Assembly (NCBI GenBank): GCA_963770895.1
Contig: CAVYRF010000001.1
Span: forward strand, 192,001 to 256,000
Origin: an uncultured Acidobacteriota bacterium
GTDB taxonomy: Bacteria; Acidobacteriota; Thermoanaerobaculia; Multivoradales; UBA5704
Length of the DNA: 64,000 nucleotides
Direction of reading: 5' to 3'
A program made the translations under genes and the position numbers. Below are positions 4,408 through 61,973 of this stretch, piece after piece (the first letter of the stretch is position 1; the number at the start of each line of letters is the position of its first letter). Below the pieces are notes generated by a model. It searched no databases. It was given only the letters and a program-made list of their open reading frames with translations, and was not told the DNA's origin.

Positions 4408-5556
4408 CTAGCGGTGGAGGCCGAAGGTCTGGACCCATAGGACTCGATAGGTTGCGGTGTGGGGGTCGCGGCCCAGGGCCAGGCCGATGCCGGTCTCATC
4501 GAAGGTGGTGTTGAGGATGTTGGCGCGGTGCTCGGGGCTGGCCATCCAGGCGTCCGCGACCTGGGGGACGGTGGTCTGGCCTTCGGCGATGTTTTCGCCG
4601 ATCGTCTGCCATTCGAAGCCGGCGGCGCGGGAGCGTTCGCGCACGCTTTTGCCTTCGGGGCTGACGTGGGCGAAGTAGGAGCGGGCCAGCATGTCCTGGG
4701 CGTGAAACTGCGCCGCCTCTTCCAGCTTGGCGTTTTCGGCCAGCGGCGGCAGCTTGGCGCGCCGGCGCTCGGCGTTGATGCGCACCAGCAGCTCGCGGCG
4801 CACCAGCTCGACGTTGCGCAGGCTGGCGGTCGAGGCGGTGAAGACGGCGGCTCGCGGCGTGGCGCAGAGTACCGAGTAGATGGGGGTGTCGCCCAGGTAG
4901 CCGGCGCCGACGCCGATCTCGGTGTAGACCGGTTCGAGCAGCCGGCGGTAGCCGCCGGCGGCGGGGTCGTCGTGCCAGGCGGCGATCAGCTCGGCGGCGT
5001 TTTCGGGGCCGGTGACCAGGCTTTCATCCCACTGCTGGGCTTCGTAGCCGGCGGCGGCCAGGCGGCGCGCCATGGCGTCCTGCGGTTCGTGCTCGGCCTT
5101 GAGCGATCCTGCGGCCACGACGGCATCGACGCGCTGCTGGGCGGCGCGATCGAGCGCCGCGGAGCGCGCCAGGGGCGGCGCGCCGCCGGCGTGGCGCTCG
5201 GCGTTGAGCCGCTGCACCAGCTCGTGGCGCAGGGCTTCGCGCTGGCGCTCGCCGTCAGCGGCCAGGGCGGCCAGGGTGGCGCGATGGGAGGCGTCGTGGG
5301 CGGTGTCGCCGGCGGCCGATCCGGAAGCGGCGCCGCCGCTTGAGGGCGCGGCGGCGGTCGCGGCAGCGGAGCCCGCCGCGGGTGTGGCGGGCTTGGCGGC
5401 GGCGGCGAGCACGGTCAGGACGGCAGCGGTTGCCAGGGCGCGGGTGCCGCCTTTGCAGACGTGTGGCCTGGCGGGCGGTTGGGCGGCGGCGGGCGGGCGG
5501 GCCGCGGTGGCCGGGCGTGCCGATGGGGCCGATGCTGGGCTGGATGGCCGGATCAT
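4408..5556 (-). CDS. Secreted CAP/SCP domain protein with two CAP domains
   Basis: Two N.ER..G.PPL repeats; AQFHAQDM..RSYFAH, GENIA, WM.SP.HRANIL motifs; start uncertain. Confidence 0.85.
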   Translation of the reverse strand: MIRPSSPASAPSARPATAARPPAAAQPPARPHVCKGGTRALATAAVLTVLAAAAKPATPAAGSAAATAAAPSSGGAASGSAAGDTAHDASHRATLAALAADGERQREALRHELVQRLNAERHAGGAPPLARSAALDRAAQQRVDAVVAAGSLKAEHEPQDAMARRLAAAGYEAQQWDESLVTGPENAAELIAAWHDDPAAGGYRRLLEPVYTEIGVGAGYLGDTPIYSVLCATPRAAVFTASTASLRNVELVRRELLVRINAERRRAKLPPLAENAKLEEAAQFHAQDMLARSYFAHVSPEGKSVRERSRAAGFEWQTIGENIAEGQTTVPQVADAWMASPEHRANILNTTFDETGIGLALGRDPHTATYRVLWVQTFGLHR

Positions 5557-5628
5557 GGCTCGTGGTTTGAGCAATGGGTGTGCCCGGACCGCGGAACCTG
5601 GGCAGCGCAACTGGTACGATACATCGCC

Positions 5629-6957
5629 TTGATCGCACCCAGCCCCGCGCCTGCGCGCTTGAGCCTGCACCAGCGGCCGGTTGCCGCGCATCTGCGCATC
5701 CTTGCCCTTGCCTGGGGCGCCTGGGCTACCGGCTTCTGCTCGCTCAGCCTGGTGTCGTTCGTGCTGCAGCCTTTACAGGACGCTTTCGGCCTTTCGGAGG
5801 ACGGGCTGGCGCGCCTCACCGCGGTGGGCGTCGGCGCCAGCGGCGTGGGCGGGTTGCTGTTCGGCTGGATGAGCGATCGCCTGGGGCGGCGCACGTCGAT
5901 TGCCGTGGCGGTGGCGGCCTTCGGGCTGGGCAACCTGGTGTGCGCCCTGGCGCCGGGGGCGGGCTGGCTGATTGCCGGGCGGGCGCTGACCGGCCTGGGG
6001 GTGGGGGGGAGCTGGGGGGCGGGGCAGGCGATGATGAGCGAGACGTTCCCGCCGGCGCTGCGCGGGCGCTACGGCGCCATCGCCCAGACCGGCGCGCCGG
6101 TGGGCCTGGGGCTGGCGGCGGTGGCCGGCTCGTTTCTGGCGCCGGCGATCGGTTGGCGGCTGGTGTTCCTGGCCTCGGCGCTGCCGCTGCTGGCGCTGCC
6201 GCTGCTGCGGCGGGTGCCCGAATCCGATCTCTGGCTGGAGCACCGGCGGTCGCTCTTGCGGCAGTCCGCCGCGGCGCGCACGGCGTTGGGCGGGGGAGCT
6301 GGGGGGGATCTGGGCGCTGCGGTCGGCGGGCCGGTCGGCGGGCGGCGGCCGATCCTGGCGCAGCTGGTGGCGGGCGACCTGGCCGGGCGCTTTGCCGGGG
6401 CGTTCGTGCTGACCACGCTCAACATGTCTGCCTACTGGTTCGCGATCGTCTGGCTGCCGCGCTACCTGCAGAAGCAGCGCGGGCTGTCGATCTTCGGCTC
6501 GGGGTGGTGGACGCTGATCTTCGTCGCCGGGTCGCTGGCCGGCTACCTGACGTTTGGCTGGGCCTCGGACGTGCTGGGCCGGCGGCGCGCCTTTGCCTTG
6601 TACAGCGCCATCACCGCGCTGGGCCTGGCGATGGTGACGCTGTTCTGGGAGGCGCTGGCCGGCCATCCGGCGGCGGGCATCGCGTGCATGGCGGTGGCGG
6701 GATTCGGCACCGGCACGTGGTCGTGCTACGGGCCTTTCTTTTCCGAGCTGTTCCCGACGCGCGTGCGCGGCGCGGCGATGTCGGTGATCATGAACGTCAG
6801 CCGCGGCGTGCAGTTTGCCGCGCCCCTGGCCATCGCCGCGGTGGCCGGCCGCTGGGGGCTGGCCGGCGGCGTGGCGCTGGCGGCCGGCTTCGCGGTGCTC
6901 TCGGGCCTGTGGGTGTGGACGCTGCCCGAAACCGCCGGGGCGGCGCTGGAGGCGTGA
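5629..6957 (+). CDS. MFS transporter
   Basis: G..SDRLGRR motif A in both halves, ETFP..LRG and ELFPT.VRG, 12-TM pattern; TTG start uncertain. Confidence 0.88.
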   Translation: MIAPSPAPARLSLHQRPVAAHLRILALAWGAWATGFCSLSLVSFVLQPLQDAFGLSEDGLARLTAVGVGASGVGGLLFGWMSDRLGRRTSIAVAVAAFGLGNLVCALAPGAGWLIAGRALTGLGVGGSWGAGQAMMSETFPPALRGRYGAIAQTGAPVGLGLAAVAGSFLAPAIGWRLVFLASALPLLALPLLRRVPESDLWLEHRRSLLRQSAAARTALGGGAGGDLGAAVGGPVGGRRPILAQLVAGDLAGRFAGAFVLTTLNMSAYWFAIVWLPRYLQKQRGLSIFGSGWWTLIFVAGSLAGYLTFGWASDVLGRRRAFALYSAITALGLAMVTLFWEALAGHPAAGIACMAVAGFGTGTWSCYGPFFSELFPTRVRGAAMSVIMNVSRGVQFAAPLAIAAVAGRWGLAGGVALAAGFAVLSGLWVWTLPETAGAALEA

Positions 6958-7022: not shown

Positions 7023-8420
7023 ATGAGCATGCCGACAATGCCAGGGGCCGTGTTGCCGGAATCCCGTCCGGGGCTGCTGCGCGCGGTGTCGCGCTGGCAG
7101 ATCGTGGGGCTGGTGCTCAACGACGTCATCGGCAGCGGCGTGTACCTGCTGCCGGCGGGCGCGGCGGCGCTGCTCGGCGGCGCGAGCGTCGGCGCCGTGG
7201 TGCTGGCGGGGGCGGCGGTGCTGCTGGTGGTGCTGTGCTTTGCCGAGGCGGCCACTCACTTTGACGAGCCGGGCAGCGCCTACCTGTATGCCCGCGCCGC
7301 GTTCGGCGGCCTGGTGGGCTTCGAGGTGGGCTGGATGTCGTGGCTGGCGCGGGTGGCGTCGGTGGCATCGCTGGCGGTGGCGTTCGCCCAGGCGCTCGGC
7401 TACCTGTGGCCGGCGGCGCGCGGCGGCTGGGAGCGGCAGTCGGCGATCGTGGTGCCGGTGCTGGCGCTGACGTTGCTCAACGTGATCGGCATCCGTTCGG
7501 GGGTGCGCACGGCGGTGCTCCTGACCATCGCCAAGGTGGTGCCGCTGGTGGTCTTCGTCACCGCCGGCACGGTGGCGGTGCTGCGCGCCCAGGGCGGCGG
7601 GCCGCTGGCGGCGGCGCTGCCGGAGGCGGCGCGGGCGATCGCCGGCGGCGCCGGCGCCGCGGCGGGGGGGCCTGGCTGGCACCGTCTGGGCGCCGCGGCG
7701 CTGCTGCTGCTGTACGCCTATGCCGGGTTCGAAAACACCGCGGCGGCGGCGGGGGAGTTCAAGAACCCGCGGCGCGACGTGCCGTTCGCCCTGCTCACCC
7801 AGATCGGCATCGTGACGCTGCTGTACGCCTGGGTGCAGTGGGTGGCGCTCAAGACGCTGCCCGGCCTGGCGACGTCGGCGACGCCGCTGGCGGACGCGGC
7901 GCGCCTGTTTCTGGGCGGCTGGGGCGGCTGGCTGCTGACGATCGGCGGCACCCTTTCCATCCTGGGCACCAACGGCAACACCGTGCTGGCCGGGCCGCGC
8001 TACCTGTTCGCCCTGGCGCGCGGCGGCTTCGGGCCGCGCTGGCTGGGGGTTGTGCATCCGCGGTTTCGCACTCCCGCGGCGGCGGTGGTGACGCAGACCG
8101 TGATCGCGCTTCCCCTGGCGCTTTCGGGCAGCTTCGTCGGCCTGGCGGCGCTGTCGGTCGTGGCGCGCCTGGGCTCCTACCTGGGCACCGCCGCCGCGGT
8201 GCCGATGCTGCGCCGCAAGCTGCCCGCCCGCCCCGGCGCCTTCCGCCTGCCCGGCGGTCCGGCGATCCCGATCGCCGCGGCGCTGCTCTGCATCGTCTTT
8301 GCCGCCAGCGCCACCCCCGGCGACCTGCTGGCCGGGGCCGTCGCCCTGGTGGTCGGCGTCGGGATCTACGCCCTGCGCCGGCCGCCGATGCCCCCCGACA
8401 CCGCGGCCGGCGCGGATTGA
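7023..8420 (+). CDS. APC family amino acid permease
   Basis: IGSGVY, GSAYLY..AFG, YAYAGFE, GEFKNP.R motifs; AAGGAG RBS. Confidence 0.9.
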   Translation: MSMPTMPGAVLPESRPGLLRAVSRWQIVGLVLNDVIGSGVYLLPAGAAALLGGASVGAVVLAGAAVLLVVLCFAEAATHFDEPGSAYLYARAAFGGLVGFEVGWMSWLARVASVASLAVAFAQALGYLWPAARGGWERQSAIVVPVLALTLLNVIGIRSGVRTAVLLTIAKVVPLVVFVTAGTVAVLRAQGGGPLAAALPEAARAIAGGAGAAAGGPGWHRLGAAALLLLYAYAGFENTAAAAGEFKNPRRDVPFALLTQIGIVTLLYAWVQWVALKTLPGLATSATPLADAARLFLGGWGGWLLTIGGTLSILGTNGNTVLAGPRYLFALARGGFGPRWLGVVHPRFRTPAAAVVTQTVIALPLALSGSFVGLAALSVVARLGSYLGTAAAVPMLRRKLPARPGAFRLPGGPAIPIAAALLCIVFAASATPGDLLAGAVALVVGVGIYALRRPPMPPDTAAGAD

Positions 8421-8433
8421 GCCGACTGAGCTG

Positions 8434-8592
8434 CTAGCCGCCGGGGCAGGCGTCGCAGATGGACACCACGTGGCAGGTGAGCCGCGTGTTGCTCGGCAGG
8501 ACAGAGCCGCCTTGCACGCCGTCCATGCGGTCGAGCTGCGCCAGCGATTCGCGGTTGAGGGTGAGCTTGCGGCCTTGCAGCTGCTTTTTCAT
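8434..8592 (-). CDS. Lanthipeptide-like RiPP precursor (52 aa, double-glycine leader), not in the ORF track
   Basis: My translation: MKKQLQGRKLTLNRESLAQLDRMDGVQGG|SVLPSNTRLTCHVVSICDACPGG; GGAGG RBS 7 nt upstream; LxLxRx5L leader motif; Ser/Thr/Cys-rich core. Confidence 0.8.
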   Translation of the reverse strand: MKKQLQGRKLTLNRESLAQLDRMDGVQGGSVLPSNTRLTCHVVSICDACPGG

Positions 8593-8688
8593 GAGCGTTC
8601 CTCCGTTGCCTGGATTGGCACCTTACCCATTGCAGTGCCAAGCGGCGTCACGTTCGCGCCATCTTCTTGATTGCTCATTCCAGAGACA

Positions 8689-8756
8689 TGGTGACGCCAG
8701 TGCGCGCCGGGACTGACTCTGGTGACCTGGTGACGCCAGTTCGCGCCGGGACCGAC
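8689..8756. repeat. Imperfect 29-bp direct repeat, 2 copies, period 39
   Basis: TGGTGACGCCAGT(G/T)CGCGCCGGGAC(T/C)GAC at 8689-8717 and 8728-8756. Confidence 0.75.
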
Positions 8757-8787
8757 CGGCACCGCGAGCTGGCGCCACCGGGCGGAA

Positions 8788-10500
8788 CTACAGCGCCCAG
8801 CCTGGCATCACGTAGGAGTAGAACAGCACGATGAGGCCGATGATCGCGGCCAGAAACGCGCTGTGCTTGAGGGTGAAACGGAACAGCCGGCCTTCTTCGG
8901 AGGCGGGCATGCCGGTGGCCGCCGCCGCCACGGCGATGCTCTGCAAGCTGATCATCTTGCCCATCACGCCGCCGCTGGAATTGGACGCCGCCATCAGCAC
9001 CGGATTGAGCCCCAGGTGGTTGGCGGTCACCACCTGGAGGTTGCCGAACAGGGCGTTGGCCGAAGTGTCGCTGCCGGTCAGGAAGACGCCCAGCCAGCCG
9101 AGCAGCGAGCTGAAGAAGGGGAAGAGCGCGCCGGTGGCCGCAAACGCCAGGCCGAGGGTGGCGGCTTCGCCGCTGTAGTTCATCAGGAACGCCAGGGCCA
9201 GGACGGTGGCGATGGTGAGCATCGGGAAGCGCAGCTGCCAGGCGACCGCGCCGACCAGCCGCACGAAGCGCCGCGGCGACACGCGCAGCACCGCGGCGGC
9301 GCCGATCGTCGCCAGCATGCAGGCGGTGCCCGACGCCGACAGGTAGCTGAAGGCGTAGATCGCGGCGTACGGCGACGGCTTCTTGACCACCGGCGGCAGG
9401 CGCAGGATCTGGTTGTGCAGGCCCGGCCAGGGGATCGAGATGGTGGCGTGGTTGAGCAGCGCCTTGATGCTGTCGACGCCCCACAGCAGCACGAAGATGA
9501 CCAGCAGTCCGTAAGGCGCCCAGGCGAGCAGCACCTGGCGCCGGGTGTGCTGCGGGCGCGCCGCGCCGGCGGCGGCCCCGGTGCCGGCGACGGCCGCGGT
9601 GCCGGTACCGGCGCCGGCCGCGGTGGCGGCGCCGGCGCCGAACGTGAAGATGCCCGCGGTGGCGTGATCGGCGGGGCGCCAGAAGCGCAGCAGGACGATC
9701 AGCGACAGGATCGCGGCCAGCGAGGCGATGATGTCGGTCAGCGCCGGCCCCAGGTTGTTGGAGACCAGAAACTGCGCCGTGGCAAACGACACGCCGCACA
9801 GCGCCGCCGCCGGCAGCACGCCGCGCAGCGCCTTGACCCCGCCCATCATCAGCATCAGGTAGGCCGGTATGAAGATCGACACCGGCGCGCAGATGCGCCC
9901 CACGTCGGAGCTCAAGCCGTGCATCGGCAGGCCGGTGATCGTCTGCAGGGTGAGCAGCGGCGTGCCGATCGAGCCGAAGGCCACCGGCGAGGTGTTGGCC
10001 AGCAGGCAGAGGACCGCGGCGTGGAACGGCGAGAAACCCAGCCCCGCCAGCATGCCCGCGGCCACCGCGACGGGCGTGCCGAAGCCGGCGGCACCCTCGA
10101 TGAAGGCGCCGAACGCGAAGGCGATCAGCAGCGCCTGCAGGCGCTGATCGCTGGTCAGGCCGCCGATCGAATCCTTGATGATTTCGAACTGGCCCGTTTC
10201 CAGCGTCAGCCGGTAGAGGGCGATGGCCCAGAAGACGATCCAGCCGATCGGCAGCAGGCCGAAGGCGGCGCCGTACAGGCTGGCGCTGACCATCGTGCCG
10301 GCGGGCATGCCGTAGACGCCCAGCGCCACCACCATCGCCGTGGCGAGCCCTGCCAGCGAGGCGATCCAGGCCGGTTTGCGCAGCACTCCGAGCAGCAGGA
10401 GAAGCACGAAGATGGGGAGCGCGGCGACCAGGGCCGACAGCGCCAGGCTGCCGCCGACAGGGAAGTACGTCTGCTGCCACTGCGCGGACAGGTCGGTCAC
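8788..10500 (-). CDS. lctP: L-lactate permease
   Basis: LQALLIAFAFGAFIEGAAGFGTP, ANTSPVAFG, FLTGSDTSANALFG, GGVMGKMIS motifs; AGGAG RBS with GTG start at 10500. Confidence 0.93.
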   Translation of the reverse strand: MTDLSAQWQQTYFPVGGSLALSALVAALPIFVLLLLLGVLRKPAWIASLAGLATAMVVALGVYGMPAGTMVSASLYGAAFGLLPIGWIVFWAIALYRLTLETGQFEIIKDSIGGLTSDQRLQALLIAFAFGAFIEGAAGFGTPVAVAAGMLAGLGFSPFHAAVLCLLANTSPVAFGSIGTPLLTLQTITGLPMHGLSSDVGRICAPVSIFIPAYLMLMMGGVKALRGVLPAAALCGVSFATAQFLVSNNLGPALTDIIASLAAILSLIVLLRFWRPADHATAGIFTFGAGAATAAGAGTGTAAVAGTGAAAGAARPQHTRRQVLLAWAPYGLLVIFVLLWGVDSIKALLNHATISIPWPGLHNQILRLPPVVKKPSPYAAIYAFSYLSASGTACMLATIGAAAVLRVSPRRFVRLVGAVAWQLRFPMLTIATVLALAFLMNYSGEAATLGLAFAATGALFPFFSSLLGWLGVFLTGSDTSANALFGNLQVVTANHLGLNPVLMAASNSSGGVMGKMISLQSIAVAAAATGMPASEEGRLFRFTLKHSAFLAAIIGLIVLFYSYVMPGWAL

Positions 10501-17299: not shown

Positions 17300-19954
17300 T
17301 TACTGCCGCTGGCGCAGGTTGGTATCCATCAGCTTGTAGATGCGCCGATATTCGTCGAGCCAGCTGGTGGCGCGGATGAAGCCGTGCGACTCGACGGGGA
17401 ACGGCGCGATCTCGAAGTTTTCTTTCTTGAGCTCGATCAAGCGCTCGACCAGGCGCACCGAATCCTGGAAGAACACGTTGTCGTCCACCATGCCGTGGCA
17501 GATCAGCAGCGGTTTGGTGAGGCCGGCGGCGAACTCGATGGGCGAGCTGCGCTCGTAGGCTTCGGGATCGAGCGTCGGGGTGTTGAGGATGGCGCCCGAA
17601 TAGGTGTCGTTGTAGTCCGCCCAATCGGTGACCGGGCGCAGCGCCGCGCCGGCGGCAAACAGGTCCGGGGTGCGGAACAGCGCCATCAGGGTGAGGAAGC
17701 CGCCGTAGGAGCCGCCGTACACGCCGACGCGGGTGCGGTCGACGCCCTTGTTGCGCGCCAGCCAGTCGATGCCGTCCGCCAGGTCCTCCAGCTCGGGGTG
17801 CCCCATCTGGCGGTAGATGGCGGTGCGCCAGTCGCGGCCGTAGCCGGCCGAGGCGCGATAGTCCATGTCGATCACGACGTAGCCGCGCTGGGTCAGGAAG
17901 CTGTGGAACATGAACTCGTGGAAGTAGTAGGACCACCCGTAATGGGCATCCTGCAGGTAGCCGGCGCCGTGGACGAAGACCACCGCGGGGCGGTGGCCGT
18001 CGGTGCCCGGCGCGCCTGCCGGCGGCGTGTAGACGCGGGCGTAGATGTTGCCGGCGCCGTGCGACGACGGGATCGGCAGGATCTCGGGCATGGTCCAGTG
18101 CTGCGCCAGAAACGCCGGGCTCACCGTGTCGGTGATGCGGCGCGCATCGGCGCCGGCCCGCGCGTCCTGCACGTACAGCTCGTCGTGGTGGGCGATGCTG
18201 GAGTGGGTCAGCAGCAGCTTCTTTTCGTCGGGGGACAGCTGGAACGCGGTCAGGCCGCCCAGGTGGCTGAGCTGCTCGGCATGGCCGCTGGCCACGTCCA
18301 CCCGCCAGACGTCGTGCTGGCCGGGGTGGCTGGCGTTGGCGGTGTAGTACAGCGCGCGGCCGTCGAAGCTGGGCACCGGCGACTCGATCTCGAAGTTGCC
18401 GCTGGTCAGCTGGCGCACGCTGCCGTCGCGGGCGGCCATGGCGAACAGGTGGTTGTGGCCGGTCACCTCTTCGCTGTCGAAGTACAGCGTCTCGTTGTCC
18501 GCCAGCCAGCCGATGTCGTGGTTGGCCCAATTGATCCAGGCGCTGTCGGTGTCGCGGTGGCGCGGCACCAGGCGCGCGCCGTCGAAGTCCAGGGTGGCGA
18601 TCCACATGTCCTTGTTGTCGTTGGCCTGCACCTCGACGGCGGCGTGGCGCCCGTCGTCGCTCCATACGGCGTCGACCACGGTGACGGCGCGCACCGCCGG
18701 CGAGACGGTCTTGTCGACGCCCTTGCCGTCGCCCTTGTCGCCGTCCTTGTCTCTGTCCTTGGCGCCGTCGTGATCGCGCTGCCGGTCGCCGCGGCGCGCG
18801 GCGGGCGTGTCGACGCCCGGTTCGGCGTCGCCGCCGGAACCGGCGCCGGCCGCGGCGGCGGCGCGCTGCGCCTTGGCGCGGGCGGCGGCAGCGTCGCGCA
18901 TGGCCTTGAGCGGGTCGTCCTTGATGCCCGGCAGCGCCCCCAGGTCGAGATCGTGGCGCTGGTGATAGCGCAGGTCGAGCAGCACCAGGCTGTCGCCGCT
19001 GCCGTCGTCCGTGCCCACCAGCGGCCGGTCGTCCTTGGCTTCGACGTAGCCCTCCTCGTTGACCCAGTGCGGAATGACCGCGATCTTGCCGTCCTTGGCG
19101 TCCTTGGGCCGCGTCACCAGCAGCAGCCAATTGCCGTCGGGCGCCAGGAACGAATCGGCGATCTTGACCTTGTCGCCCAGGTACCAGGGCAGGCCCCCCC
19201 GCGTCGGATCGGCCTTTTGCAGGGCCTGGTCGCGCTCGCGCCTGGCTTTCTTTTCCTCGCGATCGTGGCGCACCGTGTCGAACAGGCGCAGGTTTTCGCT
19301 GCGCAGGAAGTCGGCCGGTTCCTCCGCCGCCGGGTCCTTGGCGAGGCGCACGTCGGCCGCCACTTCGATGCGGCCCGACGCCAGGTCGTAGGCGAAGAAG
19401 CGGTTGCCTTCGCGAAACGAGACGGCGTGGTCGCCGGTCATGAACCGCACGCGGCTCTTGGGTTCGGGGGTGCGGGTGAGCTGGCGCACGGCGCCGGTCG
19501 TCATGTCCTTGACGAACACGTCGCCCGCGTGGACGTAGGCCCGCCACCGGCGATCGCGCGACCAGGCGCCCTCGGGGCCGTCGACGGTTCCCATCTCGGC
19601 GTCCGGTACCAGGTGGGCCGAGCGCTCGGCGAGGCTGCGCCGGTAGAGATCGCGCAGCTCGCTGCCCTGGCGCTTGATCAGGTAGTACACGCTGCGCCCG
19701 TCGGCGGACCAATAGCCCTGTTCCGGCGCGTTGCCGATCCAATCCGGGTCGGCCATGATCGTTTCCAGGGTGACGCCGGAGCTGCCGCCGGCATCGACGT
19801 CGGCGGCGTCTCCCGCTGCCGCGGCGGCGGGCGACGCCAGCATGGGGACGGCGAGCAAGGCGGCGGCCGCCAGCGCCAGTGCCGGCAGGGAAGGCGGTGC
19901 CTGCAGCGGGGCGGCGCCGGCCGCTGCGGCCTGGCGCCAGAGCTTGTGGAGCAT
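17300..19954 (-). CDS. S9 family peptidase (DPP IV / prolyl oligopeptidase-like), secreted
   Basis: Beta-propeller region plus GGSYGG nucleophile, HG.VDDNV Asp and ESHGF His. Confidence 0.93.
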   Translation of the reverse strand: MLHKLWRQAAAAGAAPLQAPPSLPALALAAAALLAVPMLASPAAAAAGDAADVDAGGSSGVTLETIMADPDWIGNAPEQGYWSADGRSVYYLIKRQGSELRDLYRRSLAERSAHLVPDAEMGTVDGPEGAWSRDRRWRAYVHAGDVFVKDMTTGAVRQLTRTPEPKSRVRFMTGDHAVSFREGNRFFAYDLASGRIEVAADVRLAKDPAAEEPADFLRSENLRLFDTVRHDREEKKARRERDQALQKADPTRGGLPWYLGDKVKIADSFLAPDGNWLLLVTRPKDAKDGKIAVIPHWVNEEGYVEAKDDRPLVGTDDGSGDSLVLLDLRYHQRHDLDLGALPGIKDDPLKAMRDAAAARAKAQRAAAAAGAGSGGDAEPGVDTPAARRGDRQRDHDGAKDRDKDGDKGDGKGVDKTVSPAVRAVTVVDAVWSDDGRHAAVEVQANDNKDMWIATLDFDGARLVPRHRDTDSAWINWANHDIGWLADNETLYFDSEEVTGHNHLFAMAARDGSVRQLTSGNFEIESPVPSFDGRALYYTANASHPGQHDVWRVDVASGHAEQLSHLGGLTAFQLSPDEKKLLLTHSSIAHHDELYVQDARAGADARRITDTVSPAFLAQHWTMPEILPIPSSHGAGNIYARVYTPPAGAPGTDGHRPAVVFVHGAGYLQDAHYGWSYYFHEFMFHSFLTQRGYVVIDMDYRASAGYGRDWRTAIYRQMGHPELEDLADGIDWLARNKGVDRTRVGVYGGSYGGFLTLMALFRTPDLFAAGAALRPVTDWADYNDTYSGAILNTPTLDPEAYERSSPIEFAAGLTKPLLICHGMVDDNVFFQDSVRLVERLIELKKENFEIAPFPVESHGFIRATSWLDEYRRIYKLMDTNLRQRQ

Positions 19955-61172: not shown

Positions 61173-61973
61173 CTAAGCGGCTCGCCTGCGTCGCGCTGTC
61201 AGGCCGCACCACAACAAGAGGCCGGCCAGAACGATCATCGCCCAGCCCGAGAGCGTGGGAATTGCTGCCACGGCGGGAGGAATACCGGCGCTCCCGGTGC
61301 AGACGGTGACGTGGTTGTCGTCCAGCGTCACGGCGCCATTGCGCGCCAGGATCCTGCCGGTCACGCTGGCGCCGGTGTTCAGAGTGATGCTGGTGAGCGC
61401 GACGATGCTTCCCCCCAGCGCGGTGCCCGTGCCCAGCGTCGCGGAGCTGCCGATCTGCCAGAACACTCCGCAGCTCGACGCGCCGTTGATGAGGAGGACA
61501 GCCGAAGCGCTGGCGGTGGTGAGCGTGCTTCCGATCTTGAAGATGAAGACGGCACTGGAGTTGCCCTGCGCGTCGAGCGTCAGCGTTCCGGTCAGCTGGG
61601 CCGAGGTCGAAAAGCAGTAGACGCCTGGCGTCAGCGTCTTCCCACCAAGGTCCTGCCCGGTCAAGTCGGTGTTGCATGGTGTATTCGCCAGGCTGTTGTA
61701 TTCGGTCGTGAGGTCGCTTTGCGCCTGGGCGGCGACGGAGTCGCCGGCGTGGATCGTCCCGCCGGTCACGATACCCGGAGGAAACCCGGTGACCGCGCTG
61801 CCCGGGCTGACACCCAGATTGCCGGTGACGATCGTCGGCGTGGCGGTGTTGGTGACCGTCGAACCGCCCAGGACCGCGAATGAGCTGAGTGGTTGACCCG
61901 CTGCCATGCACGGTAGGACGAGGAACGCAGCGACCCCCAAGGTCCTGCCGATCGAGCGACTGCGATTCATCAT
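61173..61973 (-). CDS. DUF3494 ice-binding protein with IPTL-CTERM sorting signal
   Basis: F.VL.GS.VTN, G.LGVSPG.A.TGFP, DLGG.TL.PGVY, LTLD..G...AVF.F, VFWQ.GSSATLG, GR.LA..GAVTLD.N; ends IPTLSGW-TM-RRRR. Confidence 0.92.

Follow-up and report, generated by a model that had tools for sequence, protein, structure and literature searches.

A 52-residue lanthipeptide-like precursor of an uncultured Acidobacteriota bacterium and its dispersed family of paralogs

How could a peptide that resembles a lanthipeptide precursor be matured when no lanthipeptide enzyme lies near its gene? The question is raised by a 52-codon open reading frame (ORF) at positions 8434-8592 of a 64,000-nucleotide stretch of DNA (the window, C1:192001-256000, where C1 and C2 denote contigs of the source genome) from an uncultured Acidobacteriota bacterium. 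The initial annotation had read this ORF as a stand-alone precursor of a ribosomally made and post-translationally modified peptide (RiPP), belonging to a dispersed library modified in trans in a poorly explored lineage, and the source does belong to the Thermoanaerobaculia. Taken alone the ORF is ordinary sequence; behind it, however, stands a whole family, some 95 genes strong. We consider it probable, at roughly 0.65, that it encodes a class I type LanA, one of these dispersed paralogs, modified in trans by a single LanB/LanC pair.

A short gene with a class I type leader

Because chance long ORFs are common at 71% GC, the composition of this genome, coding evidence was sought for the frame. 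The complete precursor gene lies on the minus strand (8434..8592) and comprises 52 codons followed by a TAG stop at 8434-8436, with an ATG start codon at 8592-8590 that is seen both in the sequence and in the ORF list. A Shine-Dalgarno (SD) sequence, GGAGG, is present on the same strand at 8600..8604 (cctcc on the plus strand), 7 nt 5' of the ATG, so that the ribosome-binding site of the initial annotation is found on a strand which that annotation had left unstated. The GC content by codon position is 0.64/0.45/0.91, the last value being the third-position GC (GC3), and is as expected for a coding frame in a genome of this composition; the values for the whole family described below are 0.54/0.54/0.84. 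We conclude that the 52-aa ORF is a real gene and did not arise by chance.

Its translation agrees in every residue with the leader and core first quoted for the peptide. Residues 1-29 form the leader, MKKQLQGRKLTLNRESLAQLDRMDGVQGG (8506..8592, minus strand), which carries an LxLxRx5L motif and ends in Gly-Gly, and residues 30-52 form a core of 23 aa, SVLPSNTRLTCHVVSICDACPGG (8437..8505, minus strand), with three Cys, three Ser and two Thr. Each of the three Cys has a Ser or Thr 2-7 residues upstream. The leader motif can be read as L10-T-L12-N-R14-ESLAQ-L20, with Arg replacing the Lys of LxLxKx5L, and the C-terminal end of the leader, M(-7)DGV(-4)QGG, is hydrophobic at positions -7 and -4 with Gly-Gly at -2/-1. 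In the available text of Walker et al. 2020 (PMC7268733), class I precursors from Bacteroidetes are described with LxLxKx5L leaders, many of them GG-ended, and a C39 protease is often in the cluster; the association of such leaders with class I lanthipeptides and C39 proteins, on which the initial annotation had relied, is therefore in print, and the motif is present here with Arg for Lys.

The only NCBIfam model to match the peptide was NF038153 (lant_leader_L1a, class I lanthipeptide), which aligned to residues 1-29 with 19.6 bits (E = 7.8e-4); the same match scored 18.5 bits in the genome-wide scan. No Pfam match was obtained for the 52-aa peptide, and TIGR04149, a model of RiPP precursors modified by radical S-adenosylmethionine (rSAM) enzymes, gave no match to it even at E <= 10.

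A dispersed family of precursors in one genome

The genome searched comprises 8.16 Mb in three contigs. With NF038153 we obtained 43 matches at E <= 10, of which three were over the cut-off, and the translated matches share a design of MKK..., KLxLxRETLxxL and ...V/A-A/G-G followed by a short Cys-rich tail. A leader hidden Markov model (HMM) of our own was built from 79 seeds picked by regular expression and run on all 119,748 stop-to-stop segments of at least 25 aa, a segment being counted as family if the leader scored at least 13 bits and the tail behind it contained Cys and did not exceed 50 aa. This returned 98 six-frame segments. A start codon could be assigned in 96 of them, namely ATG in 88 and GTG in 7 that have an SD-like site, and ATG in one that lacks it, such that an SD-like site lies 5' of 95 of the 96 genes. 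The window peptide scored 29.9 bits, and when it was excluded from the model (77 paralogs) it still scored 24.7 bits (E = 9.3e-5) among the 119,748 segments. An independent search with A1, an alignment of 20 sequences, gave at least 93 matches at E <= 0.01, with 150 of 445 first-look candidates scored. The genes are dispersed over all three contigs, and only 12 of the 98 fall within 15 kb of any LanB, LanC, LanM or C39 match. The search for paralogous leaders that had been suggested for this locus thus yielded 93-98 of them, and the proposed dispersed library is borne out.

Leaders are more alike than cores, with mean pairwise identities of 0.46 and 0.33 across the 96 genes. The 96 cores have median values of 26 aa in length, four Cys and six Ser plus Thr (16% Cys and 23% Ser plus Thr overall), and Ser plus Thr equal or exceed Cys in 94 of them. 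A Ser or Thr is found 2-7 residues upstream of 98.3% of the Cys residues, compared with 71.8 ± 2.4% in 500 within-core shuffles. On composition and spacing, this pattern is what lanthionine formation would require, unlike that of peptides with disulfides only.

The same features bear on whether the product might be an unmodified or only disulfide-bonded double-glycine peptide, bacteriocin-like or signalling, which is exported and cut by a C39 ABC transporter. Such a peptide would share the GG leader end and the hydrophobic residues at -4 and -7, would find C39-ABC exporters in the genome and would need no maturase nearby, as is the case here. It would not be expected to have an odd number of Cys, which is seen in the window peptide (three) and in 41 of the 96 cores, nor would it explain why Cys are tied to an upstream Ser or Thr far beyond the shuffles, or why the family tracks LanB across genomes and sits in LanB/LanC clusters of relatives, as set out below. 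We regard this explanation as improbable.

Libraries of this kind extend to related genomes, 40 of which were searched. Of the 24 genomes that belong to the same taxonomic family, 20 yielded them in the A1 search and 15 gave 26-70 matches, and libraries of 19-70 genes are present in most genomes of that family. Another family of the order gave 51 matches in one genome (G025), and the remaining families gave at most seven in 15 of 16 genomes. Among the genomes compared, the source genome has the largest family count, at least 93. A profile search of 1.84 billion representative proteins returned 9,279 at E <= 1e-3, the top matches being 45-75 aa long and of the same design, and a pattern scan of species genomes gave 11 confirmed loci, all titled as Acidobacteriota or Thermoanaerobaculia metagenome-assembled genomes. 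In some of the public proteins, of 168 and 132 aa, a leader and core occur twice within a single frame, and in one of 1447 aa nine stretches are matched. Gene callers may here have run neighbouring precursor genes together, or the proteins may be true multi-core precursors.

We also considered how the genes came to be dispersed. Flanking DNA is common to only 29 pairs of loci, mostly as a patch of 200-270 nt, and the 198-nt intergenic stretch upstream of the window gene is unique in the genome; carriage by a mobile element was rejected on these two grounds. Two small arrays of family genes at distant loci (C2:3875885-3877265 and C2:4747256-4748457) share 272 nt that are 83% identical and span one nearly identical precursor, which suggests that a duplication took place recently. 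Several further family loci have a common noncoding patch of about 200 nt next to them. A sigma-54-like -24/-12 pattern is found upstream of only 3 of the 96 genes. As to neighbours, the stretches up to 5 kb from a family gene make up 10.8% of the genome, and against this background MacB/FtsX permeases are found near family genes in 12 of 55 cases where 6.0 are expected (uncorrected P = 0.013). The other counts are 3 of 5 Vgb-lyase-like propellers, 9 of 238 nonribosomal peptide synthetase genes, 9 of 56 ABC ATPases and 4 of 20 FHA-sigma-54 activators. None of the five classes was convincing, and a recurrent neighbour was rejected.

Maturation enzymes, export and the surroundings of the gene

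Which enzyme would serve these precursors? Within the window we found no LanB, LanC, LanM, C39, YcaO or SPASM match, as had first been claimed for the 64 kb (the PF04055 radical-SAM and LanKC kinase domains were not searched genome-wide), and Pfam searches of 35 of its 43 called genes returned no maturase. The genome as a whole contains one full-length LanB, one protein with the LanB N-domain only and one with the elimination domain only, two LanM, nine stand-alone LanC-like genes (one paired with the LanB), LanC-like domains inside two long proteins, nine C39 matches of which three are strong, one YcaO and five SPASM matches. The genes that the initial annotation proposed to look for, a synthetase and a C39 peptidase, are therefore both at hand elsewhere in the genome.

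The full-length LanB has 1177 aa with both Pfam domains complete, and forms a convergent pair with a LanC of 536 aa at C2:5178405-5183583, the LanB gene occupying 5180053-5183583 and the LanC gene 5178405-5180012. The closest solved structure to this LanB is MibB (5ehk, E = 6e-47). Its conservation is high, with 60-74% identity to 30 homologs, and the names of several of these give Thermoanaerobaculia as the source. The LanC can be aligned to LanC proteins of solved structure and retains the HG / WCYG / CHG motifs, which we take to be the zinc and acid-base sites. The pair is flanked by genes for chorismate synthase, RNase II, a type II secretion system ATPase and an M14 peptidase. It has neither a precursor nor a transporter as a neighbour, and the nearest family gene is about 16 kb away. 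Both LanM genes, in turn, adjoin precursors of their own with a different leader, matching TIGR03898 (mersacidin/lichenicidin type 2) with 46.9 and 70.8 bits against a cut-off of 23.5. A LanM is for this reason an unlikely partner of the family, as far as gene context can tell.

Some further LanB- and LanC-like genes deserve mention. A protein of 925 aa (C2:4507910-4510684) has only the N-terminal glutamylation domain of LanB and adjoins a gene for 2634 aa, and a frame of 485 aa has only the elimination domain, at C2:3339409-3340281; from their domain content these may be split or repurposed LanB-like enzymes. We also observed a leader sub-group, (I/L)xKETLLPLxSR, with His-rich cores that contain one Cys or none (C2:2709098-2709298, C1:1579909-1580106, C2:5020190-5020498 and C1:652844-653143). 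Two of its genes directly adjoin stand-alone LanC-like genes (C2:2707932-2709005 and C1:1580203-1581279).

The distribution of the enzymes across 41 genomes points to LanB. A match to PF04738 is present in all 21 genomes with at least seven family matches, with a best E < 1e-100 in 18 of the 21; the gene is in pieces in G020 and G024, and the G005 genome is 84% complete. A LanM match is absent from four of the 21 (G008, G018, G022 and G027). Of the 16 genomes without a family match, six have some PF04738 match and one has a match below 1e-100. As the relatives are not independent samples, this co-occurrence is a pattern and not a statistic. Physical linkage is seen in two of these relatives. 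G027, which belongs to a different family within the order, has six precursors in tandem that adjoin LanC and LanB genes, and a second locus with the order precursor-LanC-LanB; in G002, from the same genus, the only family gene of the genome is 2 kb from the orthologous LanC/LanB pair. One precursor was scanned from each of these three loci, giving NF038153 scores of 39.3, 38.6 and 29.0 bits, all over the cut-off.

A complex prediction was run with LanB residues 1-840 and the peptide, both supplied as alignments. It gave 0.55 (runs of 0.55, 0.55 and 0.57), and the best of three controls gave 0.02. Of 157 solved complexes 116 attain the mark that this result passes, as do 2 of 215 mismatches; at values up to 0.60 only 18 of the 157 attain it, along with both of the passing mismatches. 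At least 43% of contacts agree between runs, and the predicted local distance difference test score of the partner is at least 43. The complex of NisB with the NisA leader is a solved structure, and the pass may therefore reflect likeness only. The model lends weak support to a pairing of LanB with the peptide.

From these observations we infer the following route for the window peptide. Once translated, its conserved leader, LxLxRE(T/S)L...GG, would be bound by the sole full-length LanB, encoded on another contig about 5 Mb of sequence away. The LanB would glutamylate Ser and Thr of the core with Glu-tRNA and then eliminate glutamate to give dehydro-residues, to which the adjacent LanC, or another stand-alone LanC, would add the three Cys thiols to form (methyl)lanthionine rings. 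The last step would be removal of the leader behind its Gly-Gly, for which a C39 peptidase-ABC exporter is the likeliest candidate.

The leaders of the family are compatible with such a last step. Double-glycine leaders follow a rule of hydrophobic residues at -4, -7, -12 and -15. Here, 56 of the 96 leaders end in GG and 29 in AG; 73% have a hydrophobic residue at -7, and 67 of the 96 have Val or Ala at -4. A C39-ABC exporter of 737 aa (C1:1782768-1784978) matches TIGR03796 with 1073 bits, and genes for an ABC partner, for an outer-membrane factor and for a pump of the MacB type are close to it. A second C39-ABC protein, of 1055 aa (C2:2970256-2973420), adjoins a LanC and an HlyD-type protein.

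Several observations weigh against modification of the window peptide by the LanB/LanC pair and export by a C39 protein. The strongest C39 exporter, of 737 aa, is an NHLP-family equivalog, whose usual clients carry a different leader, and its use for the leaders of this family is therefore a guess. The lanthipeptide-related gene nearest to the peptide is LanC-like and 311.7 kb away, and the LanB is on another contig. No promoter motif is shared upstream of the 96 family genes, as judged by the lack of an enriched 7-mer. G029 has a strong LanB with no family match, and G017 a strong LanB with a single match. In some relatives leader-type genes lie near LanM genes (for example G023:C32 and G005:C545), such that LanM may be used by part of the family. 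Finally, one G027 precursor also scores on TIGR04149, with 26.9 bits against a cut-off of 25.

The last two points would fit a RiPP precursor that is matured otherwise, by a LanM, by a radical-SAM/SPASM enzyme making other thioethers or by an unrecognised maturase, with the LanB/LanC pair serving only a subset of the family. The five SPASM matches and the YcaO would offer such enzymes, one family gene is 3.5 kb from a LanM, and Thermoanaerobaculia are described as having unusual RiPP enzymes, among them a thiazole-making GMC oxidoreductase (PMC13083261, from the portion available). The TIGR04149 overlap is, however, that of a relative's precursor and is not seen for the window peptide at E <= 10, both LanMs have TIGR03898 precursors of their own, four family-rich genomes do without a LanM, and the placing of Ser/Thr before Cys fits lanthionine. 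We therefore think another maturase rather unlikely, though less so than an unmodified product.

A further group of adverse points concerns the window peptide itself. Its NF038153 score of 19.6 bits is under the curated cut-off of 22, which is the curators' threshold and no biochemical feature. In the leave-one-out search it ranks 86th, among the more divergent members, and the spacer from the RE(S/T)L box to GG falls short of the length seen in most members of the 20-sequence family alignment. The leave-one-out score holds despite the rank, which indicates a real but rather divergent member of the family; with its divergent leader and shortened spacer the peptide could be a poor or lost substrate.

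It is possible, then, that the gene is a silent or decaying paralog, a member by descent that is now unexpressed or no longer recognised by the maturase. Besides the sub-threshold leader, with RESL for RETL and its short spacer, the lack of a sigma-70-like promoter within 8300-8900 would agree with this (the two terminator-like matches there are on the opposite strand). The intact frame, strong SD and high GC3 speak for a gene in use, as do its homologues. By word-index search, the public protein collection holds one relative of 52 aa that is 98% identical, with a single conservative V-to-L change in the core. G001, of the same genus, has a homolog of 61 aa (66% identity, E = 1.1e-6) in which the core end RLTCHVVSICxxCPG is kept, and the alignment of 50 codons comprises 20 identical ones, 13 with synonymous differences and 17 that encode another residue. 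Contigs from soil cover the gene only in pieces; one from another population, assembled at depth 2.6 from a single soil run, spans 8456-8606 with four differences, of which the two listed (8512 T>C and 8530 G>A) are at third positions and synonymous by codon arithmetic; at this depth the differences may be errors. We regard decay as the least probable of the explanations considered, and prefer a working precursor matured by LanB and LanC.

The G001 homolog is not syntenic with the window gene. It lies within an insert of about 1 kb (G001:C215) that is absent at the corresponding junction of the source genome (C1:1985380/1985384), where its flanks are contiguous (C1:1984040-1986161). Among congeneric species, then, gain or loss of precursor genes occurs in small units.

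The window gene occupies the gap between two transporter genes, an amino-acid permease gene on the plus strand that ends at 8417-8420 and an L-lactate permease gene on the minus strand that ends at 8791. Immediately upstream of the SD, within the 5' untranslated region, a perfect 7-bp inverted repeat can be read from the sequence (TTGGCAC-N13-GTGCCAA, 8615..8641), and two tandem direct repeats of 39 nt, 82% identical, lie at 8674..8751 between the lactate-permease stop and the peptide gene. A gene for an S9 prolyl-oligopeptidase/DPP-IV-like protein is located at 17303-19954 (minus strand), 9 kb from the peptide gene. S9-type peptidases trim some lanthipeptide leaders; no link between these two genes was seen. 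Two other genes of the window are unrelated to the precursor, one for an ice-binding-like protein (61176-61973, minus strand; PF11999, E = 4e-65) and one for a secreted CAP-domain protein (4411-5691, minus strand).

Comparison with known systems

From Acidobacteriota, Thermoanaerobaculia among them, lanthipeptide clusters of classes II and III have been characterised together with a GMC oxidoreductase that forms thiazoles (Nature 2026, PMC13083261, as far as its available text goes); dispersed libraries of class I are not mentioned in that text. The lanthipeptide-thiazole precursors of that study, ThaA and TheA, come from the same bacterial class and likewise have a leader followed by a Cys-rich core. 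By their description in that part of the text, however, they are clustered with a class II LanM and the GMC oxidoreductase. The rSAM-modified precursors of TIGR04149, from the CFB group, have a similar N-terminal leader and GG end, and the relative's precursor scores on both models; the window peptide differs from these in being unmatched, and no radical-SAM/SPASM gene was found in the window by the SPASM search (PF04055 was not searched genome-wide).

The closest likeness is to the pinensin-family class I precursors of Bacteroidetes (NF038153), which, in the available text of PMC7268733, share the leader motif (with Arg for Lys here), the frequent Gly-Gly end, the Cys/Ser/Thr-rich core and LanB and LanC partners. 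In contrast to those L1a precursors, the window gene is unclustered, comes from an acidobacterium, scores just under the cut-off and has so many paralogs that its family numbers about 95 genes in a single genome. The simplest filing would be among the L1a class I precursors, as a member that is divergent and stands outside a cluster. The class I clusters of G027 (two loci) and G002 have the same leader family with orthologous LanB (frames of 1176-1430 aa) and LanC genes. They differ from the arrangement in the source genome in that their precursors are adjacent, six in tandem or single; here, none is within 16 kb of the LanB/LanC pair, and the precursors are dispersed.

If maturation by the LanB/LanC pair is correct, library-style RiPP evolution would have arisen independently with a two-enzyme, tRNA-dependent pathway, and the pair may tolerate around 100 different cores. 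It would explain why cluster mining centred on enzymes misses nearly all precursors in the abundant uncultured Acidobacteriota of soil, and would raise the question of what some 95 different ring-bearing peptides do for one cell. A cheap experiment would also be on offer, in which one enzyme pair is set against many short synthetic genes. We found no description of a dispersed class I library in the full-text literature (subscription journals and the supplements of PMC13083261 were outside the search).

The system that most resembles the family in its organisation is that of the prochlorosins and synechococsins (ProcA/ProcM and SyncA/SyncM). There too, many precursors are encoded mostly away from the enzyme, a conserved leader is joined to a hypervariable core, and very few synthetases are present; in the available text of a 2025 review (PMC12328550), ProcM is credited with 29 precursors and SyncM with 79, and SyncM is called the most flexible enzyme reported. 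Those systems are class II, with one bifunctional LanM, and belong to marine cyanobacteria, whereas the leader here is of class I type and tracks LanB, with 93-98 genes. Enzymes of the ProcM/SyncM type are prized as promiscuous tools for making cyclic-peptide libraries. To our knowledge, natural combinatorial lanthipeptide libraries have so far been known for class II enzymes of marine cyanobacteria. We would give about even odds to the broader proposal that one conserved LanB/LanC pair, set among housekeeping genes, matures some 95 dispersed hypervariable precursors including the window peptide, which would make it the first class I (Glu-tRNA-dependent) counterpart of the prochlorosins and the largest lanthipeptide library reported from a single genome. 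The leaders of prochlorosins and synechococsins are of the Nif11/NHLP type. The analogy drawn in the initial annotation therefore stands for the library of unlinked precursors with its conserved leader and variable core and fails for the machinery, in that the two LanMs of the genome have TIGR03898 precursors of their own and the peptide matches NF038153 and no Nif11/NHLP model; since its leader is of class I type and its partner would be a LanB/LanC pair, the family lies outside the prochlorosin system though it would work alike.

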